A model generated the notes under the pieces. It had not been told where the DNA came from. It saw nothing but the letters and a program-made list of their open reading frames with translations, and ran no database searches. DNA of 64,000 bases from Dehalococcoidia bacterium. GTDB taxonomy: Bacteria > Chloroflexota > Dehalococcoidia > Lucifugimonadales > UBA1123. Where the stretch lies: contig OZ247432.1 of NCBI GenBank assembly GCA_965232905.1, positions 95,668 to 159,667 of the forward strand. Reading direction: 5' to 3'. Position numbers and translations under genes: made by a program. Within the stretch, counting starts at the first letter, position 1. Every line of letters starts with the position of its first letter. Shown one piece after another: positions 17,693-24,885 of this stretch.

Positions 17693-18910
17693 TTACCCAA
17701 TGACTTCGTTTACCAGCGCGAGACCCTCTTCGAGTCTATCGTGCCAGTCGTCGCGCGGACGGCGGATCGCGTTGGTGCACACCCTAAACAGGCAGACCGC
17801 CTCACGAAGGGCGAGTTCCCGCTCACTCCACCTGAACCGGTCGAGGGCCGCGCTCCGGAAGATCTGGTGGTACGCCCCCCTTGCGTCCGCCTCGCGGCTG
17901 CTCCCGAAGTGTGACGCCCACCGCAGGTGCGCCAGGAAGTTTCCCACGTCCAGCATGGGGTCTCCCGGCCCGGCCTCCTCGAAGTCCACGACTGCTATCC
18001 TGCCATCCCGCAGGACGAGCATCTGGTCGTCGTAGAAGTCGTTGTGCGCGATGACACCTGGACGCCAGTCCCTCACGAACGGGTCGAGCGCCTTGGTGGC
18101 ATCTTTGAGGCTGCGCGCGGCTTCAGAATCGTCGCGAGCGTTGTGCCTGAAGCTGCGCCTTGCCCTCCGGTACGCGCTGGCCAGGTTGAACGGACGGCCT
18201 TTGTGCCCATTGGGAGAGGTTTTCCATAGCGGCTCCAGCCCATCGAGTAGCAGCATGGGGTCCGGCATCCTGCCCCGGCGCAGCCTCTGACGGAGGTTCC
18301 TCCCAGGAATCTCAGACAGCCAAATCACGCCGCCTTCAGGCCAGTGCCCCGCGAGACGTGGGACAACGAACCCCGACTGACCCATCAACTCATGCGCCGC
18401 AAGAAACGTAGACGCTGCCGTAGGGCGCATTACGCGCACGAAGAGCCGGACTCTTCCAGCGGTGTGACGAAGCACGGCCCTGTTCGCCGGCCTGTAGCGC
18501 ACCAGTTGCACACGAGCCGTCCGCATCCGGACCGCCAGTACGTGCCTATTTAGTAACGTGAAAGCGGCCTCAGGGTCGGATGCCTCAGGCAGCCCCGGCA
18601 GTCTTGGGTCTTCCGGGAACTGGAATACGTTAACCGGTCCGTCCCGCTCGACCATTGCCGCAAACTGCTGCGAGGGCAGGTACTCGTCGGGGTGCCACTC
18701 CACCTCGTAGCTGACTATGGCGCTCCTGCCGAGGCTGTGACTGAACTGGCGAACGCGGATCCGTTCAGGAGTGGGCTCGTGTCCGCCGAACTGTCGAAAG
18801 GCACTGTAGACCCAATCGGGATCGAACAGACTGGCTAGCTCCGGAATGCCCTTGTCATCCGGGAAGGCTATCCGCGGATACTGTGATACAGCGGCGGGCG
18901 ATGTGGTCAT
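17693..18910 (-). CDS. aminoglycoside-phosphotransferase (APH/CotS)-like protein kinase-fold enzyme
   Basis: 405 aa. IAHNDFYDDQMLV (catalytic-loop-like) and VVDFEEAGPGDPMLDVGNFLAHL (DFG-equivalent). Starts 5 nt after the stop of the repeat-protein gene. Confidence 0.75.
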   Translation of the reverse strand: MTTSPAAVSQYPRIAFPDDKGIPELASLFDPDWVYSAFRQFGGHEPTPERIRVRQFSHSLGRSAIVSYEVEWHPDEYLPSQQFAAMVERDGPVNVFQFPEDPRLPGLPEASDPEAAFTLLNRHVLAVRMRTARVQLVRYRPANRAVLRHTAGRVRLFVRVMRPTAASTFLAAHELMGQSGFVVPRLAGHWPEGGVIWLSEIPGRNLRQRLRRGRMPDPMLLLDGLEPLWKTSPNGHKGRPFNLASAYRRARRSFRHNARDDSEAARSLKDATKALDPFVRDWRPGVIAHNDFYDDQMLVLRDGRIAVVDFEEAGPGDPMLDVGNFLAHLRWASHFGSSREADARGAYHQIFRSAALDRFRWSERELALREAVCLFRVCTNAIRRPRDDWHDRLEEGLALVNEVIG

Positions 18911-18915
18911 CTCTA

Positions 18916-21162
18916 TCAGCTGCTGACGTCGCTCTCGTCGCTATCCACGTCGCTGTCCTCCGAGACCGACGGGTCGCTCGGTGGGGGCGGCGTATCTACG
19001 CCATCAGAGTCAGTGCCATCGTTGTCAGTAGGAGTGGGCGTGTCGATGCCATCCGAGTCAGTACCGTCGTTATCCGTTGGCGTAGGCGTGTCTATCCCGT
19101 CCGAGTCAGTGCCGTCGTTGTCAGTGGGGGTTGGTGTATCGATGCCGTCGGAGTCGGTACCGTCATTGTCAGTAGGTGTTGGTGTATCGATGCCGTCGGA
19201 GTCTGTTCCATCGTTGTCGGTGGGAGTTGGTGTATCAATACCGTCGGAGTCAGTCCCATCGTTGTCAGTAGGAGTAGGCGTGTCGATGCCATCGGAGTCA
19301 GTGCCGTCGTTGTCCGTGGGGGTTGGTGTATCGATGCCGTCGGAGTCGGTTCCGTCGTTGTCGGTAGGGGTAGGGGTATCGATGCCGTCGGAGTCGGTCC
19401 CATCGTTGTCAGTAGGAGTAGGCGTGTCGATCCCGTCGGAGTCTGTGCCGTCGTTATCAGTAGGAGTAGGCGTGTCAATGCCGTCGGAGTCAGTACCGTC
19501 GTTGTCTGTCGGAGTGGGGGTGTCTATGCCGTCAGAGTCTGTGCCGTCGTTGTCGGTCGGAGTCGGGGTGTCTATTCCATCAGAGTCAGTGCCGTCGTTG
19601 TCGGTCGGAGTCGGGGTGTCTATTCCATCAGAGTCAGTGCCATCGTTGTCAGTCGGAGTCGGGGTGTCTATGCCGTCGGAGTCAGTGCCATCGTTATCAG
19701 TCGGAGTCGGGGTGTCTATTCCATCGGAGTCAGTGCCATCGTTGTCGGTTGGGGTTGGAGTATCGATGCCGTCGGAGTCAGTACCATCATTGTCGGTGGG
19801 AGTAGGAGTGGGTGTGTCATCTGTATCGGTGTCGTCATCGACGTCTGGAGTTGGAGTCGGTCTTACCACCGGAGTAGACGTCGCCACCGGTGTGGATGTG
19901 GCATTAGTCTCCTCGCTGGTGCTCAGCATGGCGCTCTCGCTCTTGCCCAGCCCTCCTCCAACGAGGTTCTTGATCCACTTGCCTTCAGGGGTCACCTCAG
20001 TGATCAATTCCCCTGGCTGCCCAGTGTTGCCGCCTCGGTAGAGGTCGAAGCCCTGGGAGGACAACGCATAGACGCGGATTTCGTACTCCGTTCCTGCTTC
20101 GAGCCCCGGGATCGTCAGCACTGTACCGCTGGTTACCCCGGACACGACCGCGAACGTGGGCGTCTCGCCGGGCTTTCTCCACCCAATCCTGAGTTTGCCG
20201 TTGGAGGCGGCTGGCAGCGTCACCTGGATATCGAGTTCGCCGGATCGAGCGTCCACCAGGGACATTGCGCCTGGCGTCAGGGGAGGTGGGGTCCGGTCCG
20301 AAATCGTGTAGAGGCTGAACTCCTGGTCCTGGCTTACTCCGTCAACGGTTGCGGTGACCGTACACACCGTCTCTGATTGGGTGTTCGGCCCGTGAACGTG
20401 GCCCTGGGAATTGGACGCCAGCGTCAGCTTACCGTTCTCGACACTGGCTGAGTCGTAGTAGTCGCCCCTCGCCTCGTCACAGGACTTCAGAGTGAATGCG
20501 GCGCTCCCGGTGCCAGAGGATAGGTAGTCGGCCAGATCAACCTCGGCCCCGCTGCCGTAACTGGTGAGCACCCTGTAGGAGGCGTCGGCGTCGAAGATGC
20601 TAGATGTGCTTCTGTCCGAGACCGGTGCGCTGTTGGCCGTGAGCGCCGTGTCGATCTCCCTGGTTATCACTTCACCACCCGGGCTTGGGGCGTTTCGTGT
20701 CACCAGCACGTTCGTAAAGCTGACAGTTGCCGGTGCGTCGAACTCCATGCTTGGGACCGCCTGGAGGACGTTGGAGTCCGGGGTGTTCACTCCATCCGAG
20801 TCGGTGCCGTCATTGTCGGTGGGGGTCGGAGTATCGATGCCGTCAGAGTCGGTGCCGTCGTTATCAGTGGGAGTAGGCGTGTCTATGCCGTCAGAGTCAG
20901 TCCCATCGTTGTCGGTGGGAGTAGGTGTGTCGATTCCGTCAGAGTCAGTACCGTCATTATCCGTTTGCGGAATGTTCAGGACGCCATCGCCCTCTCCATC
21001 CTCCTCGTCATCACCGATGACACCCAGACGAGAGGGCGCGACGATGCCTTCGGGGGGATCGAACTTGGGGGTGACATTGGCGACCACCGCACCACTGGTC
21101 ACCAAAGCCAGGGAGAGGGCAAGCGACAGGGTAGCTACAACAAATGAAAACAGACTTTTCAT
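18916..21162 (-). CDS. secreted acidic repeat protein: signal peptide, 4 DxDG repeats, central beta-rich region with FN3-like domain, 17 DxDG repeats, Ser/Asp/Glu tail
   Basis: 748 aa. N-terminal MKSLFSFVVATLSLALSLALVTSGAVVA. The unit TDNDGTDSDGIDTPTP is iterated. TEYEIRVYALS is typical of an FN3 F-strand. A GAGGAG SD lies 8 nt upstream. Confidence 0.85.
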   Translation of the reverse strand: MKSLFSFVVATLSLALSLALVTSGAVVANVTPKFDPPEGIVAPSRLGVIGDDEEDGEGDGVLNIPQTDNDGTDSDGIDTPTPTDNDGTDSDGIDTPTPTDNDGTDSDGIDTPTPTDNDGTDSDGVNTPDSNVLQAVPSMEFDAPATVSFTNVLVTRNAPSPGGEVITREIDTALTANSAPVSDRSTSSIFDADASYRVLTSYGSGAEVDLADYLSSGTGSAAFTLKSCDEARGDYYDSASVENGKLTLASNSQGHVHGPNTQSETVCTVTATVDGVSQDQEFSLYTISDRTPPPLTPGAMSLVDARSGELDIQVTLPAASNGKLRIGWRKPGETPTFAVVSGVTSGTVLTIPGLEAGTEYEIRVYALSSQGFDLYRGGNTGQPGELITEVTPEGKWIKNLVGGGLGKSESAMLSTSEETNATSTPVATSTPVVRPTPTPDVDDDTDTDDTPTPTPTDNDGTDSDGIDTPTPTDNDGTDSDGIDTPTPTDNDGTDSDGIDTPTPTDNDGTDSDGIDTPTPTDNDGTDSDGIDTPTPTDNDGTDSDGIDTPTPTDNDGTDSDGIDTPTPTDNDGTDSDGIDTPTPTDNDGTDSDGIDTPTPTDNDGTDSDGIDTPTPTDNDGTDSDGIDTPTPTDNDGTDSDGIDTPTPTDNDGTDSDGIDTPTPTDNDGTDSDGIDTPTPTDNDGTDSDGIDTPTPTDNDGTDSDGIDTPTPTDNDGTDSDGVDTPPPPSDPSVSEDSDVDSDESDVSS
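18998..19813 (-). repeat. in-frame tandem array, about 17 copies of a 48-bp unit (16 aa, TDNDGTDSDGIDTPTP)
   Basis: The period is counted from the translation and from the antisense-frame ORF (PSESVPSLSVGVGVS[MI] x16 plus a partial). Units are identical as peptide but differ at many third-codon positions. Boundaries are good to within a few nt. Confidence 0.9.
20788..20964 (-). repeat. second in-frame array, about 3.7 copies of the same 48-bp unit near the N-terminus
   Basis: Translation is QTDNDGTDSDGIDTPTP x3 followed by TDNDGTDSDGVNTP. Confidence 0.85.
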
Positions 21163-21483: not shown

Positions 21484-22641
21484 ATGTTCAACAGAACGAA
21501 GACAGTGCTGCGTACGGACATAGTCGCCCTGCTCGTGTTCCTGCTGGTCTCTGCGTGCCAGAATCAGCTTGACCCGGCGAACTCCGTGCTGGAACTGCCG
21601 TCGGGCAGGGATCCCAACGCCTCGGTAAGCGGCACGGTGACGTACAGGGAAAGAATCAGCCTGTCGCCCGGAGCAAAGCTTGTCGTCGAGATTCGCGACG
21701 TGTCATACCAGGATGCTGCCGCACCACTCATCGCTCGCCAGACGATCTCAGCTCCGGGACAGGTACCCATAGAGTACAGGGTCGGCTACAACCGCGATGA
21801 CGTAGACTCTCGGAGCATCTATTCGGTGAGCGCGAAGATCGTCGAGTCGGACGGCAGGCTCGCTTTCACAAACGACACCGCACACGAAGTGATCACCCGA
21901 GGGAATCCCAACAGGGTTGACATGGTTCTTGTGCTGGTTCAGCCTCCTCCCGACATGGCAGGGGCCAACGAAGACTGGCGTTCATGGGTGGAGACTCCGG
22001 CACGAGTGACCTGGGCGAACCTGATTCCGAATGAACCTGAGCAGTTCCTGCGGATTGGATTCCTCCAGTCGACCATCGAGGGTTGCGCTCGACCGGGCAG
22101 CCAGTCTCTAGAGGTACAGGGGAACAACATCGTCGCCAGCGTTACCCTGATGCAGCCGCCGCCGACGGAGTGGGCGATTCCGTGTGACGATGAAGTGGTA
22201 GAGCTGGATGCCGTCGAGCAGATAGAAGATCCCCTGGAACCCGGGCAGACTCACACGGTGATCGTTAACGGGCAGGTCACTACGACCTTTTCCATACCTG
22301 AGGCAAGCCTTGGGTATACGTCCATGGCTGAGTCTCCCATTGAGAGGGCAGAAGTCAGATCGTGGGAAGGGATGACAATCGAGTACGAGCTACTGGTCGT
22401 GTCAGGGCTATCGAAGGGCAGCTCATGCTCGCAGTTCAACGGCTACGAGATACGCCGGAGCGAGTCCGACACGGTCGAAGTGAGGATTACACACCATGAG
22501 GTCTCAGACCCGATGGTGGCCTGCACGGCAGACTATCCGACAGTTGAGACGACCGTACCACTGGGTTCTAACTTCGAGCCGGGTGTGGAGTACACTGTTG
22601 TGGTCAACTCAGACACCTCAGAGAAGTTTGTCGCCCAGTAG
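21484..22641 (+). CDS. lipoprotein with N-terminal YbaY-like domain and two related Cys-pair C-terminal domains
   Basis: 385 aa. Lipobox LLVSAC. VSGTVTYRERISLSPGAKLVVEIRDVSYQDAAAPLIA...IYSVSAKI matches the YbaY/YscW-type lipoprotein domain. Confidence 0.65.
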   Translation: MFNRTKTVLRTDIVALLVFLLVSACQNQLDPANSVLELPSGRDPNASVSGTVTYRERISLSPGAKLVVEIRDVSYQDAAAPLIARQTISAPGQVPIEYRVGYNRDDVDSRSIYSVSAKIVESDGRLAFTNDTAHEVITRGNPNRVDMVLVLVQPPPDMAGANEDWRSWVETPARVTWANLIPNEPEQFLRIGFLQSTIEGCARPGSQSLEVQGNNIVASVTLMQPPPTEWAIPCDDEVVELDAVEQIEDPLEPGQTHTVIVNGQVTTTFSIPEASLGYTSMAESPIERAEVRSWEGMTIEYELLVVSGLSKGSSCSQFNGYEIRRSESDTVEVRITHHEVSDPMVACTADYPTVETTVPLGSNFEPGVEYTVVVNSDTSEKFVAQ

Positions 22642-24384: not shown

Positions 24385-24885
24385 ATGAGCCACAGAAAAC
24401 CAAGTTTCACCTTCAGCCTCCTGCTGTTTGCCCTCGCAGTCCCTGCTTTACTGCTGGCCTGCGACGAGGCAGACGAGGGGTTATCTCGAGAGATCGTCCA
24501 GGAGATAGCGCGATCGGAGATTGCCAGTTTTCCAGAGCCTGATGTCTTCGGCCTCTCAAGGGACGAAGTGGGTGAGATTGTAGAAGCGAAGATCGCTGAA
24601 ATGCCTGAACCTGAGACCGGCCTGGACCGCGAGGAAGTAGAAGAAGTTGTGCAGGCCGCCATGAGAGGTCTGCTTGTTCCCAAGCCAAGCCTGACCCGCA
24701 CGGAAATCGAGGAGATCGTTCAGGCTGAGGTAGGCAGAATCCCAGAACCGGAGCCGGGCCTGACGCGTGAGGAAGTGGAAGAGATCGTACAGGCGGCGGT
24801 AGCGGACATCCCCAAGCCAGAACCAGGCCTGACGCGTGAGGAAGTGGAAGAGATCGTCAAGTCACTGATGGATGACTCACAGTGA
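24385..24885 (+). CDS. lipoprotein composed of about six 22-24-aa acidic helical repeats (PEPxxGL[TS]REEVEEIV)
   Basis: 166 aa. Signal peptide plus lipobox (ALLLACDE). The remainder consists only of the repeat units. Confidence 0.7.
   Translation: MSHRKPSFTFSLLLFALAVPALLLACDEADEGLSREIVQEIARSEIASFPEPDVFGLSRDEVGEIVEAKIAEMPEPETGLDREEVEEVVQAAMRGLLVPKPSLTRTEIEEIVQAEVGRIPEPEPGLTREEVEEIVQAAVADIPKPEPGLTREEVEEIVKSLMDDSQ
24757..24857 (+). repeat. 32-bp perfect direct repeat, two copies 69 bp apart, within the lipoprotein gene
   Basis: GGCCTGACGCGTGAGGAAGTGGAAGAGATCGT occurs at 24757..24788 and 24826..24857, matching the 23-aa unit spacing. Confidence 0.85.

Follow-up and report, generated by a model that had tools for sequence, protein, structure and literature searches.

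A repeat protein with 19 exact acidic 16-residue units and its kinase-like partner, which probably make a modified, calcium-binding surface polyanion in a Dehalococcoidia bacterium

Organization of the Locus

The window, the whole 64,000-nucleotide (nt) stretch of contig OZ247432.1 from a Dehalococcoidia bacterium, contains a gene for an acidic, predicted exported protein with two arrays of a 16-amino-acid (aa) unit, TDNDGTDSDGIDTPTP, and, directly downstream, a gene for a kinase-like enzyme of the APH fold. The repeat gene and the kinase-like gene constitute an undescribed two-gene module. Its features are as follows.

18916..21162, minus strand: repeat-protein gene from the list of open reading frames (ORFs), 748 aa, predicted exported, acidic; stop codon TGA at 18916-18918
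21076..21162, minus strand: predicted Sec-type signal peptide, aa 1-29, MKSLFSFVVATLSLALSLALVTSGAVVA followed by N, as read from the sequence with an inferred cleavage site
20773..20964, minus strand: N-terminal array, aa 67-130, three exact 16-aa units and one degenerate unit
19903..20610, minus strand: conserved core, aa ~185-420, an immunoglobulin (Ig)-like beta-sandwich followed by FN3 (AlphaFold, Foldseek, Pfam)
19798..19902, minus strand: Pro/Thr-rich and poly-Asp linker between the core and the C-terminal array, aa 421-455 (sequence reading)
18982..19797, minus strand: C-terminal array, aa 456-727, 16 exact 16-aa units and one terminal variant
18919..18981, minus strand: acidic Ser-rich C-terminal tail PSDPSVSEDSDVDSDESDVSS, ending in DVSS (sequence reading)
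17693..18910, minus strand: APH-fold kinase-like gene (PF01636), 405 aa, without a signal peptide

In the AlphaFold model of the repeat protein, built with 38 homologues, a helix at aa 3-23 falls within the predicted signal peptide, which is followed by a short acidic stretch and then the N-terminal array. Three units of that array are TDNDGTDSDGIDTPTP and the last is the variant TDNDGTDSDGVNTPDS; the C-terminal array contains 16 copies of TDNDGTDSDGIDTPTP and likewise ends in a variant, TDNDGTDSDGVDTPPP. The region between the N-terminal array and the linker is unique, non-repeat sequence, and the D/S-x-SS motif that closes the tail is seen again in relatives of the protein. Each TDNDGTDSDGIDTPTP unit contains five Asp and two DxDG turns but no basic or aromatic residue. 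No other gene in the genome, a single contig of 3.39 Mb, carries the motif. The first-pass annotation had counted 17 (+4) units, which is correct, but had taken all 21 to be identical in peptide sequence; 19 of the 21 are exact and the last of each array deviates. Its array coordinates (18998..19813 and 20788..20964) were ~16 nt out of codon register.

A Kinase-Like Gene Accompanies the Repeat Gene

The strongest functional clue at this locus, missed by the first-pass annotation, is the obligate APH-fold kinase-like partner. Its gene begins 5 nt past the stop codon of the repeat gene (TGA-TAGAG-ATG) and is the only syntenic neighbour of the repeat gene in relatives. It lies directly downstream in 17/17 loci that encode DGxDTP repeats and in 0/17 loci without such repeats. 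Across 25 species genomes of the same genus, the kinase is present in 13 and the Ig-FN3 core in five, and all eight kinase loci of this genus with readable upstream sequence are preceded by an acidic repeat protein with a signal peptide. These eight upstream proteins range from ~110 to 750 aa, with or without the core, and carry TDxDG/DGxDTP repeats, at least one TDNDGTDSDG-type unit near the C-terminus, and an acidic Ser tail. In another genus, a 46%-identical kinase sits after a different exported acidic repeat protein.

The two parts also occur as natural fusions. Four proteins (P0052, P0058, P0060, and P0053, which includes LysM) combine an N-terminal hydrophobic segment, exact 16-mers, the tail, and the kinase in a single chain, and the fusions were confirmed on independent ENA, Logan, and NCBI contigs. 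Because the pairing is kept in the absence of the core, and because of the fusions, the partner of the enzyme is the repeat region and not the adhesion core. The adjacency of kinase and repeat genes is thus conserved in the manner of CotH and CotG.

Some same-genus loci are broken. In G011 (L038, L040, L041, L057, L060) and at L033, the core gene and the kinase gene are split over two or three frames, which may reflect pseudogenisation of the whole module or assembly frameshifts. In G019, the protein paired with the kinase consists of repeats without an Ig-FN3 core (379 aa), and its gene has a 4-nt overlap with the kinase frame.

Conservation of the Repeat Unit

The C-terminal array is detected by Tandem Repeats Finder (TRF) with a 48-bp period, 17.1 copies, and 84% matches. 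As the first-pass annotation had noted, the DNA units differ at wobble positions: among the 19 exact units, 15 of the 16 third codon positions are variable, and their alignment contains no first- or second-position change, so the differences are confined to synonymous sites. Pairs of units differ at 2–13 nt (mean 8.67). Random codon draws from the genome's own usage, estimated on 1462 long ORFs, predict 9.04 differences per unit, which means that the silent sites are ~96% saturated.

Selection on the peptide was quantified by Fitch parsimony on a tree of the 19 units built by the unweighted pair group method with arithmetic mean (UPGMA), with 36.3 nonsynonymous and 11.7 synonymous sites per unit. 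The minimum is at least 75 synonymous steps and no nonsynonymous step, where ~234 of the latter would be expected under neutrality, giving an upper bound of ~0.013 for omega, the ratio of nonsynonymous to synonymous divergence (dN/dS). For the folded core of the same gene, compared with its closest relative (L001), omega is 0.15 at a dS of 0.58. The low-complexity arrays are therefore more than 10 times more constrained than the globular core of the same protein. Together with the recurrence of the 16-mer in nine genomes, this bears out the strong purifying selection on the peptide that had been suggested from the window alone.

Homologues of the core were collected as P0001-P0046, plus 34 loci in species-representative genomes, and those from Dehalococcoidia often bear exactly the same 16-mer. 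The cores of the nine genomes with the identical 16-mer are 51–86% identical. Differences among the 70 exact units from these genomes are almost exclusively at third positions, the sole exception being one Ser codon. Between genomes, multi-unit arrays diverge by 7.7–9.4 nt per unit, equal to the within-array level of the window and saturated; recent horizontal spread of a repeat cassette is thereby ruled out as the cause of the identity. In a wider set of 166 units with at most three mismatches, positions 1–10, 12, and 13 are all but invariant, position 11 alternates between I and V, and variation is otherwise found only in the PTP end.

The motif is rare. An exhaustive HMMER search of 1.84 billion representatives returned 164 matches at E<=0.001, but the ones with less than ~40% identity come from unrelated low-complexity proteins rich in D/T, none of which has a TSP3 domain. 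Only a few dozen matches are true high-identity carriers, which indicates that the motif is restricted to a clade. The exact unit also occurs in other exported architectures, namely proteins with two FN3 domains (including one from a Caldilineaceae metagenome-assembled genome (MAG) from a sponge) and LysM proteins. The peptide string had no match in the full texts of 8.4 million papers, and a topical literature search (sponge, Chloroflexi, calcium-binding) found nothing on this protein.

An apparently disordered 16-mer that stays invariant while its silent sites saturate and the attached core falls to ~50% identity is an unusually clean signature of function. Such invariance implies that the motif must be read by something, and the obligate kinase-like partner and the fusions name a candidate reader, turning an odd repeat into a two-component system.

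Three further features of the units were observed. The Ser codon exception lies in L023, where Ser8 of one unit is AGC and not TCN, a switch that requires either a double hit or two successive substitutions by way of a codon for another residue and that fits strong selection for Ser8. At unit position 7, the Asp codon of T-D-S is GAC in 69/70 exact units of the nine genomes (window 18982..20964; L001, L002, L005, L016, L017, L023), whereas the other four Asp columns have GAT in 17–53% of units and, genome-wide, no more than 78% of the Asp codons before TCN are GAC; this bias represents a constraint on a silent site. Lastly, a variant unit of 17–18 aa, TDNDGTDSDGIDTTGLL(A), with TGLL replacing the PTP end, forms arrays of its own (L005/L070, L061/G019).

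The Kinase-Like Enzyme

The product of 17693..18910 matches PF01636 with 46.7 bits against a cut-off of 23.2 and thus belongs to the APH family. Its structure was modelled by AlphaFold as the fusion P0058, with 67 sequences; the kinase is predicted with a confident APH/ELK fold (predicted local distance difference test score, pLDDT, >90), while the repeats have pLDDT<50. All 67 sequences keep the HND catalytic loop and the DFE metal site unchanged. The Foldseek matches with the highest sequence identity are peptide Ser/Thr kinases, LxmK (18–19%) and TvaE (14%), and the NCBIfam LxmK model (NF038156) gives a weak match, at 26.9 bits well below the equivalog cut-off of 315. Homologues of the kinase number at least 637.

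The Core and Its Hosts

The core (aa ~185-420) is modelled as two domains with pLDDT mostly of 85–97. Its best Foldseek matches are NCAM Ig-FN3 tandems, and it also matches other animal adhesion receptors; for the NCAM tandems and for FN3 domains the probability is 1.00. The Pfam fn3 model (PF00041) scores 22.4 bits, below the cut-off of 25 (E=1.4e-4), and several homologues carry a precomputed PF00041 match. The confident model and the structural matches together describe the seven-strand beta-sandwich of FN3. The first-pass annotation had correctly recognized FN3 in the core, but FN3 does not stand alone there; it is preceded by the Ig-like domain. A pair of Cys residues (C228, C267) is invariant, which fits an extracytoplasmic domain.

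The core is found in MAGs of Dehalococcoidia, Candidatus Poribacteria, Acidobacteriota, Nitrospirales, Acidimicrobiales, Alphaproteobacteria, and 'Candidatus Porisulfidus', an assemblage characteristic of sponge microbiomes. Based on this assemblage, the genome is probably of sponge origin. Poribacteria have been described as dominating in sponges and as having many eukaryote-like repeat proteins (PMC3909097). Outside Chloroflexota, the core is accompanied by Calx-beta, LRR, or poly-Asp appendages and not by the 16-mer. Two core homologues (P0028, P0034) with FN3 and LRR have long (D5-6 G S S)n terminal tails, which resemble Asp-rich biomineralisation proteins and are apparently a different polyanionic appendage on the same core.

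Proposed Function of the Module

The module thus comprises an exported hyper-acidic Asp/Thr/Pro repeat protein, an optional Ig-FN3 core, and a kinase-like enzyme encoded downstream or fused; its Chloroflexota hosts are probably sponge-associated. We propose, with a probability of roughly 60%, that the 16-aa unit, chiefly TDNDGTDSDG[I/V]DT, is a tightly constrained functional motif for both enzyme recognition and cation binding rather than a passive spacer. The enzyme would recognise the T-D-x-D-G units and/or the Ser-rich tail, and the likeliest modification would be phosphorylation of Thr/Ser in the acidophilic T-D-x-D context, perhaps extending to the tail. The product would be a disordered, multivalent polyanion, displayed on the cell or released, that may bind Ca2+ or other cations of sea water or of the host matrix. 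The invariance of every residue could then be explained by a dual constraint, recognition by the enzyme and coordination of cations by each Asp.

A more specific version is possible but tentative, and we would sooner expect it to fail than to hold: the pair may be a new bacterial secreted-phosphoprotein system, in which the APH-fold enzyme phosphorylates, or modifies in some other way, the T-D-x-D-G repeats of its co-translated partner at multiple sites to yield a hyper-anionic, Ca2+-binding protein of a coat or matrix. If this hypothesis is correct, the module would be a functional bacterial counterpart of Fam20C and its acidic secretory phosphoprotein substrates, and sponge-associated Chloroflexota would use it to engage a calcium-dependent host matrix with or without an Ig-FN3 head. 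If the enzyme modifies the repeats at all, this would represent a new bacterial route to polyanionic, cation-binding surface material in abundant uncultured sponge symbionts. Because they lack both Lys and Arg, the arrays would escape tryptic metaproteomics, which may explain why such a system has gone unnoticed.

Several observations weigh against the proposed motif for recognition and cation binding. As encoded in the window, the kinase lacks a signal peptide but its presumed substrate is exported, a mismatch of topology, and in the fusions the kinase comes after a segment that is apparently exported, the two being separated by a basic patch and not by a membrane helix. No Lys is invariant or nearly so in the 67 kinase sequences, and the Asn position of HxDxxxxN is an invariant Gln; from the sequence alignment, the canonical ATP-anchoring Lys appears to be missing or replaced by Arg. 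Given the absence of a conserved Lys and the Gln in place of Asn, the chemistry may not be ordinary phosphotransfer, and we therefore call the enzyme kinase-like. Its Foldseek neighbours are mostly small-molecule kinases (MTR kinase, APH(9), choline kinase). The adjacency of the two genes could partly reflect shared ancestry in one clade. Both arrays have pLDDT<50 and no secondary structure, and the searches of the repeat with TSP_3, TSP3_bac, and PDB sequences, detailed below, are silent.

Alternative Explanations

The first-pass annotation had likened the unit to TSP3 calcium-binding loops and pictured a polyvalent rod on either side of the core. Under this explanation, the repeats would be structured, metal coordination alone would conserve them, and the kinase would be irrelevant. 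The composition of the unit, with its five Asp, two DxDG turns, and absence of basic and aromatic residues, is compatible with it, as are the Calx-beta or poly-Asp tails of core homologues outside Chloroflexi, which suggest a theme of cation-binding appendages; with five Asp per 16 residues, binding of calcium or other cations is chemically plausible. However, the models of TSP_3 (PF02412) and TSP3_bac (PF18884) do not match the whole protein at E<=1, a five-unit peptide at E<=10, or a six-frame translation of the whole genome at E<=10. A search of the repeat against NCBIfam returned nothing, as did a PDB sequence search with five units at E<=10. The Asp spacing of the unit, DxDGxDxDGxD (D-N-D-G-T-D-S-D-G-I-D), with no Cys, differs from the DxDxDGxxDxxD of TSP3, which has flanking Cys in its eukaryotic form, and no register of TDNDGTDSDGIDTPTP fits the EF-hand pattern (D/N at 1, 3, and 5; G at 6; hydrophobic at 8; acidic at 12). 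With the models silent and the spacing deviant, membership in TSP3 is not upheld. Neither is the rod, as both arrays are predicted without secondary structure at pLDDT<50, although this is weak evidence because AlphaFold models no Ca2+. Furthermore, metal binding alone leaves unexplained the invariance of Thr1, Thr6, Ser8, and Thr13, the obligate kinase partner, and the fusions. We consider this explanation unlikely, though it is the best placed of the alternatives.

Less likely still, the enzyme might phosphorylate a sugar, choline, ethanolamine, or another small molecule, which would then be O-linked to Thr/Ser of the repeat, comparable to LicA-dependent phosphocholine or the glycosylation of staphylococcal SD repeats; the repeat would be a modification sequon. 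TP-rich segments are classical O-glycosylation sites. Choline kinase/LicA, N-acetylhexosamine 1-kinase, and MTR kinase are among the Foldseek neighbours of the enzyme, the Pfam Choline_kinase model matches it weakly, and there is precedent for dedicated enzymes in SdgA and SdgB, which modify SD repeats (PMC3794999). Yet no transferase or nucleotidyltransferase is conserved beside the pair, the kinase alone being syntenic, and covalent fusions of kinase and repeat are hard to reconcile with a cytoplasmic small-molecule kinase.

A further explanation concerns the DNA itself. The first-pass annotation had raised the possibility that silent-site scrambling is itself selected, as identical 48-bp units would recombine or slip. 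The main reading gives a different account of how the arrays evolve. Mean within-array differences per unit range across genomes from 1.5 (L016) and 2.6 (L023) through 4.9, 5.7, and 7.1 to 8.0 (L001) and 8.7 (window), copy number differs in every homologue examined, and the neighbouring window units 472, 504, and 520 are only 2 nt apart. The arrays evolve by birth and death of whole units under purifying selection and not by concerted evolution. Duplication and loss of whole units would make the arrays grow and shrink while amino-acid replacements are purged and silent sites drift; the window arrays would be old, with silent sites at codon-usage equilibrium, and sister genomes would hold younger arrays of nearly identical DNA. 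The comparison of the window with L001 revealed no positional orthology of units: no diagonal appears, and nearest-neighbour distances are those of chance, an oddity given that the core dS is only 0.58. A higher-order periodicity of 144 bp, suggested by TRF, was rejected, since similarity between units is no greater at lag 3 than at lag 2 (8.15 versus 8.07). The module is a compact natural case of tandem-repeat birth and death under extreme purifying selection, with arrays of all ages available for comparison.

Two observations could favour selected scrambling. Within the clade, DNA divergence is greatest in the three longest arrays (window, L001, L002), and the three positional pairs of N-terminal units between the window and L001 show differences at 25 sites, more than the 16.5 +/- 3.3 that flanking silent sites predict. 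This excess, however, would be explained equally well by unit turnover or by short-tract exchange of silent variants. The observed divergence of 8.67 does not surpass the 9.04 of codon-usage equilibrium, and arrays of the same peptide in other genomes are tolerated with nearly identical DNA (means of 1.5–2.6 differences per unit). Moreover, the C-terminal array of the window retains an exact repeat of 53 nt and 95 repeated 20-mers, roughly three times the 33 found in column-shuffled arrays, whose longest repeat is 29 nt (23–38); the observed values were reached in 0/1000 shuffles. Selection against recombinogenic DNA identity is thus largely refuted.

It is still less probable that the protein is a polyprotein or a precursor resembling those of ribosomally synthesized and post-translationally modified peptides (RiPPs), whose 16-mers are released or dehydrated after phosphorylation as in the LxmK and TvaE pathways: identical tandem peptides are typical of multi-core precursors and LxmK and TvaE are the nearest kinases by sequence identity, but the neighbourhood has no conserved lyase, cyclase, protease, or transporter, the units are not separated by cleavage motifs, the Sec signal peptide and folded Ig-FN3 core favour a surface protein, and the LxmK score (26.9 of the required 315 bits) is far too low. 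The prospect that the array is an assembly artefact, with a wrong copy number or chimeric units, is negligible, since the units are ~18% apart in DNA and hence individually addressable, making collapse unlikely, the genome is a single 3.39-Mb contig, the frame is open across 816 nt, and dozens of independent assemblies contain arrays built in the same way.

Gene Calling in the Arrays and Neighbouring Genes

Two plus-strand ORFs, 18883..20376 and 19013..20041, exist solely within the stop-free repeat and could mislead gene callers. Coding on this strand was considered and rejected: the seeming conservation of the antisense frame, SVPSLSVGVGVS[M/I]PSE, arises from the overlap of its third positions with the third positions of the real gene, and its M/I varies where the minus-strand peptide is constant. 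In P0025 and P0062, the repeat DNA is read in a shifted frame (TATASTPRRPRTTTG..., HRQRRHRH...), and at L063 (3590..5281) the stop-free frame that contains the kinase reaches back through the repeat for 564 aa. These arrays commonly show frameshift errors or artefacts of gene calling.

The divergent neighbour of the repeat gene (21484..22641, plus strand) is not syntenic in relatives. It encodes a lipoprotein in which a YscW-like domain (PF09619, E=4e-31) precedes two beta-rich repeats that match fn3 weakly. An unrelated 69-bp tandem repeat of 2.1 copies (24712..24857) lies in a small lipoprotein gene of PEPEPGLTREEVEEIVQA-type repeats.

Comparison with Known Systems

The closest functional analogue is CotH with CotB/CotG (PMC7821199), in which a dedicated kinase gene likewise lies beside a gene for a disordered tandem-repeat protein. 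There, the repeat protein is poly-phosphorylated and ends in an extracellular layer; phosphorylation is proven in that system and inferred in this one. CotH belongs to another kinase family, in contrast to the APH (PF01636) enzyme described here, and the repeats of CotB/CotG are basic, Ser-rich, and not Sec-exported, whereas those of the present protein are acidic and rich in Thr and Asp.

Polyubiquitin genes undergo birth-and-death evolution under purifying selection. They are the closest evolutionary analogue (PMC10457151), sharing units that are identical in protein sequence, synonymous divergence between units, and copy number that varies among lineages; the combination of a dN near 0 with substantial dS between units is found in the present arrays as well. 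Ubiquitin, however, is a folded domain of 76 aa that is released by proteases, while the unit here is 16 aa of low complexity, and neither a cleavage motif between units nor a linked protease gene was seen in the sequence and the compared loci.

In architecture, the closest analogues are the serine-aspartate repeat (SDR) regions of the staphylococcal ClfA/Sdr proteins with SdgA/SdgB (PMC3794999, PMC8561734). These too are long, acidic, low-complexity repeats of an exported adhesin, placed between the ligand-binding domain and the cell and served by dedicated modifying enzymes. They differ in having a dipeptide unit, in being modified with N-acetylglucosamine (GlcNAc) by glycosyltransferases, and in tolerating drift of length and sequence.

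Other resemblances are more partial. TSP3 and bacterial TSP3 (PF02412, PF18884) also consist of Asp-rich DxDG loops without regular secondary structure, and the TSP loops wrap Ca2+, but the repeat described here has no HMM match, another Asp spacing, no disulfides, a Thr/Pro linker, and an obligate kinase partner. The RiPP kinases LxmK (class V lanthipeptides) and TvaE (thioamitides) share the APH fold and act on peptide Ser/Thr; compared with them, the present enzyme scores far under the family cut-offs, has no lyase partner, and presumably acts on a large Sec-exported protein. The Ig-FN3 core resembles animal adhesion molecules, as do the eukaryote-like repeat proteins of sponge symbionts (FN3, LRR, cadherin/Calx-beta; PMC3909097), but acidic 16-mer arrays with a kinase partner fall outside that described repertoire. 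Among the three closest systems, CotH, polyubiquitin, and SDR, none unites this motif with this enzyme family and this export route.

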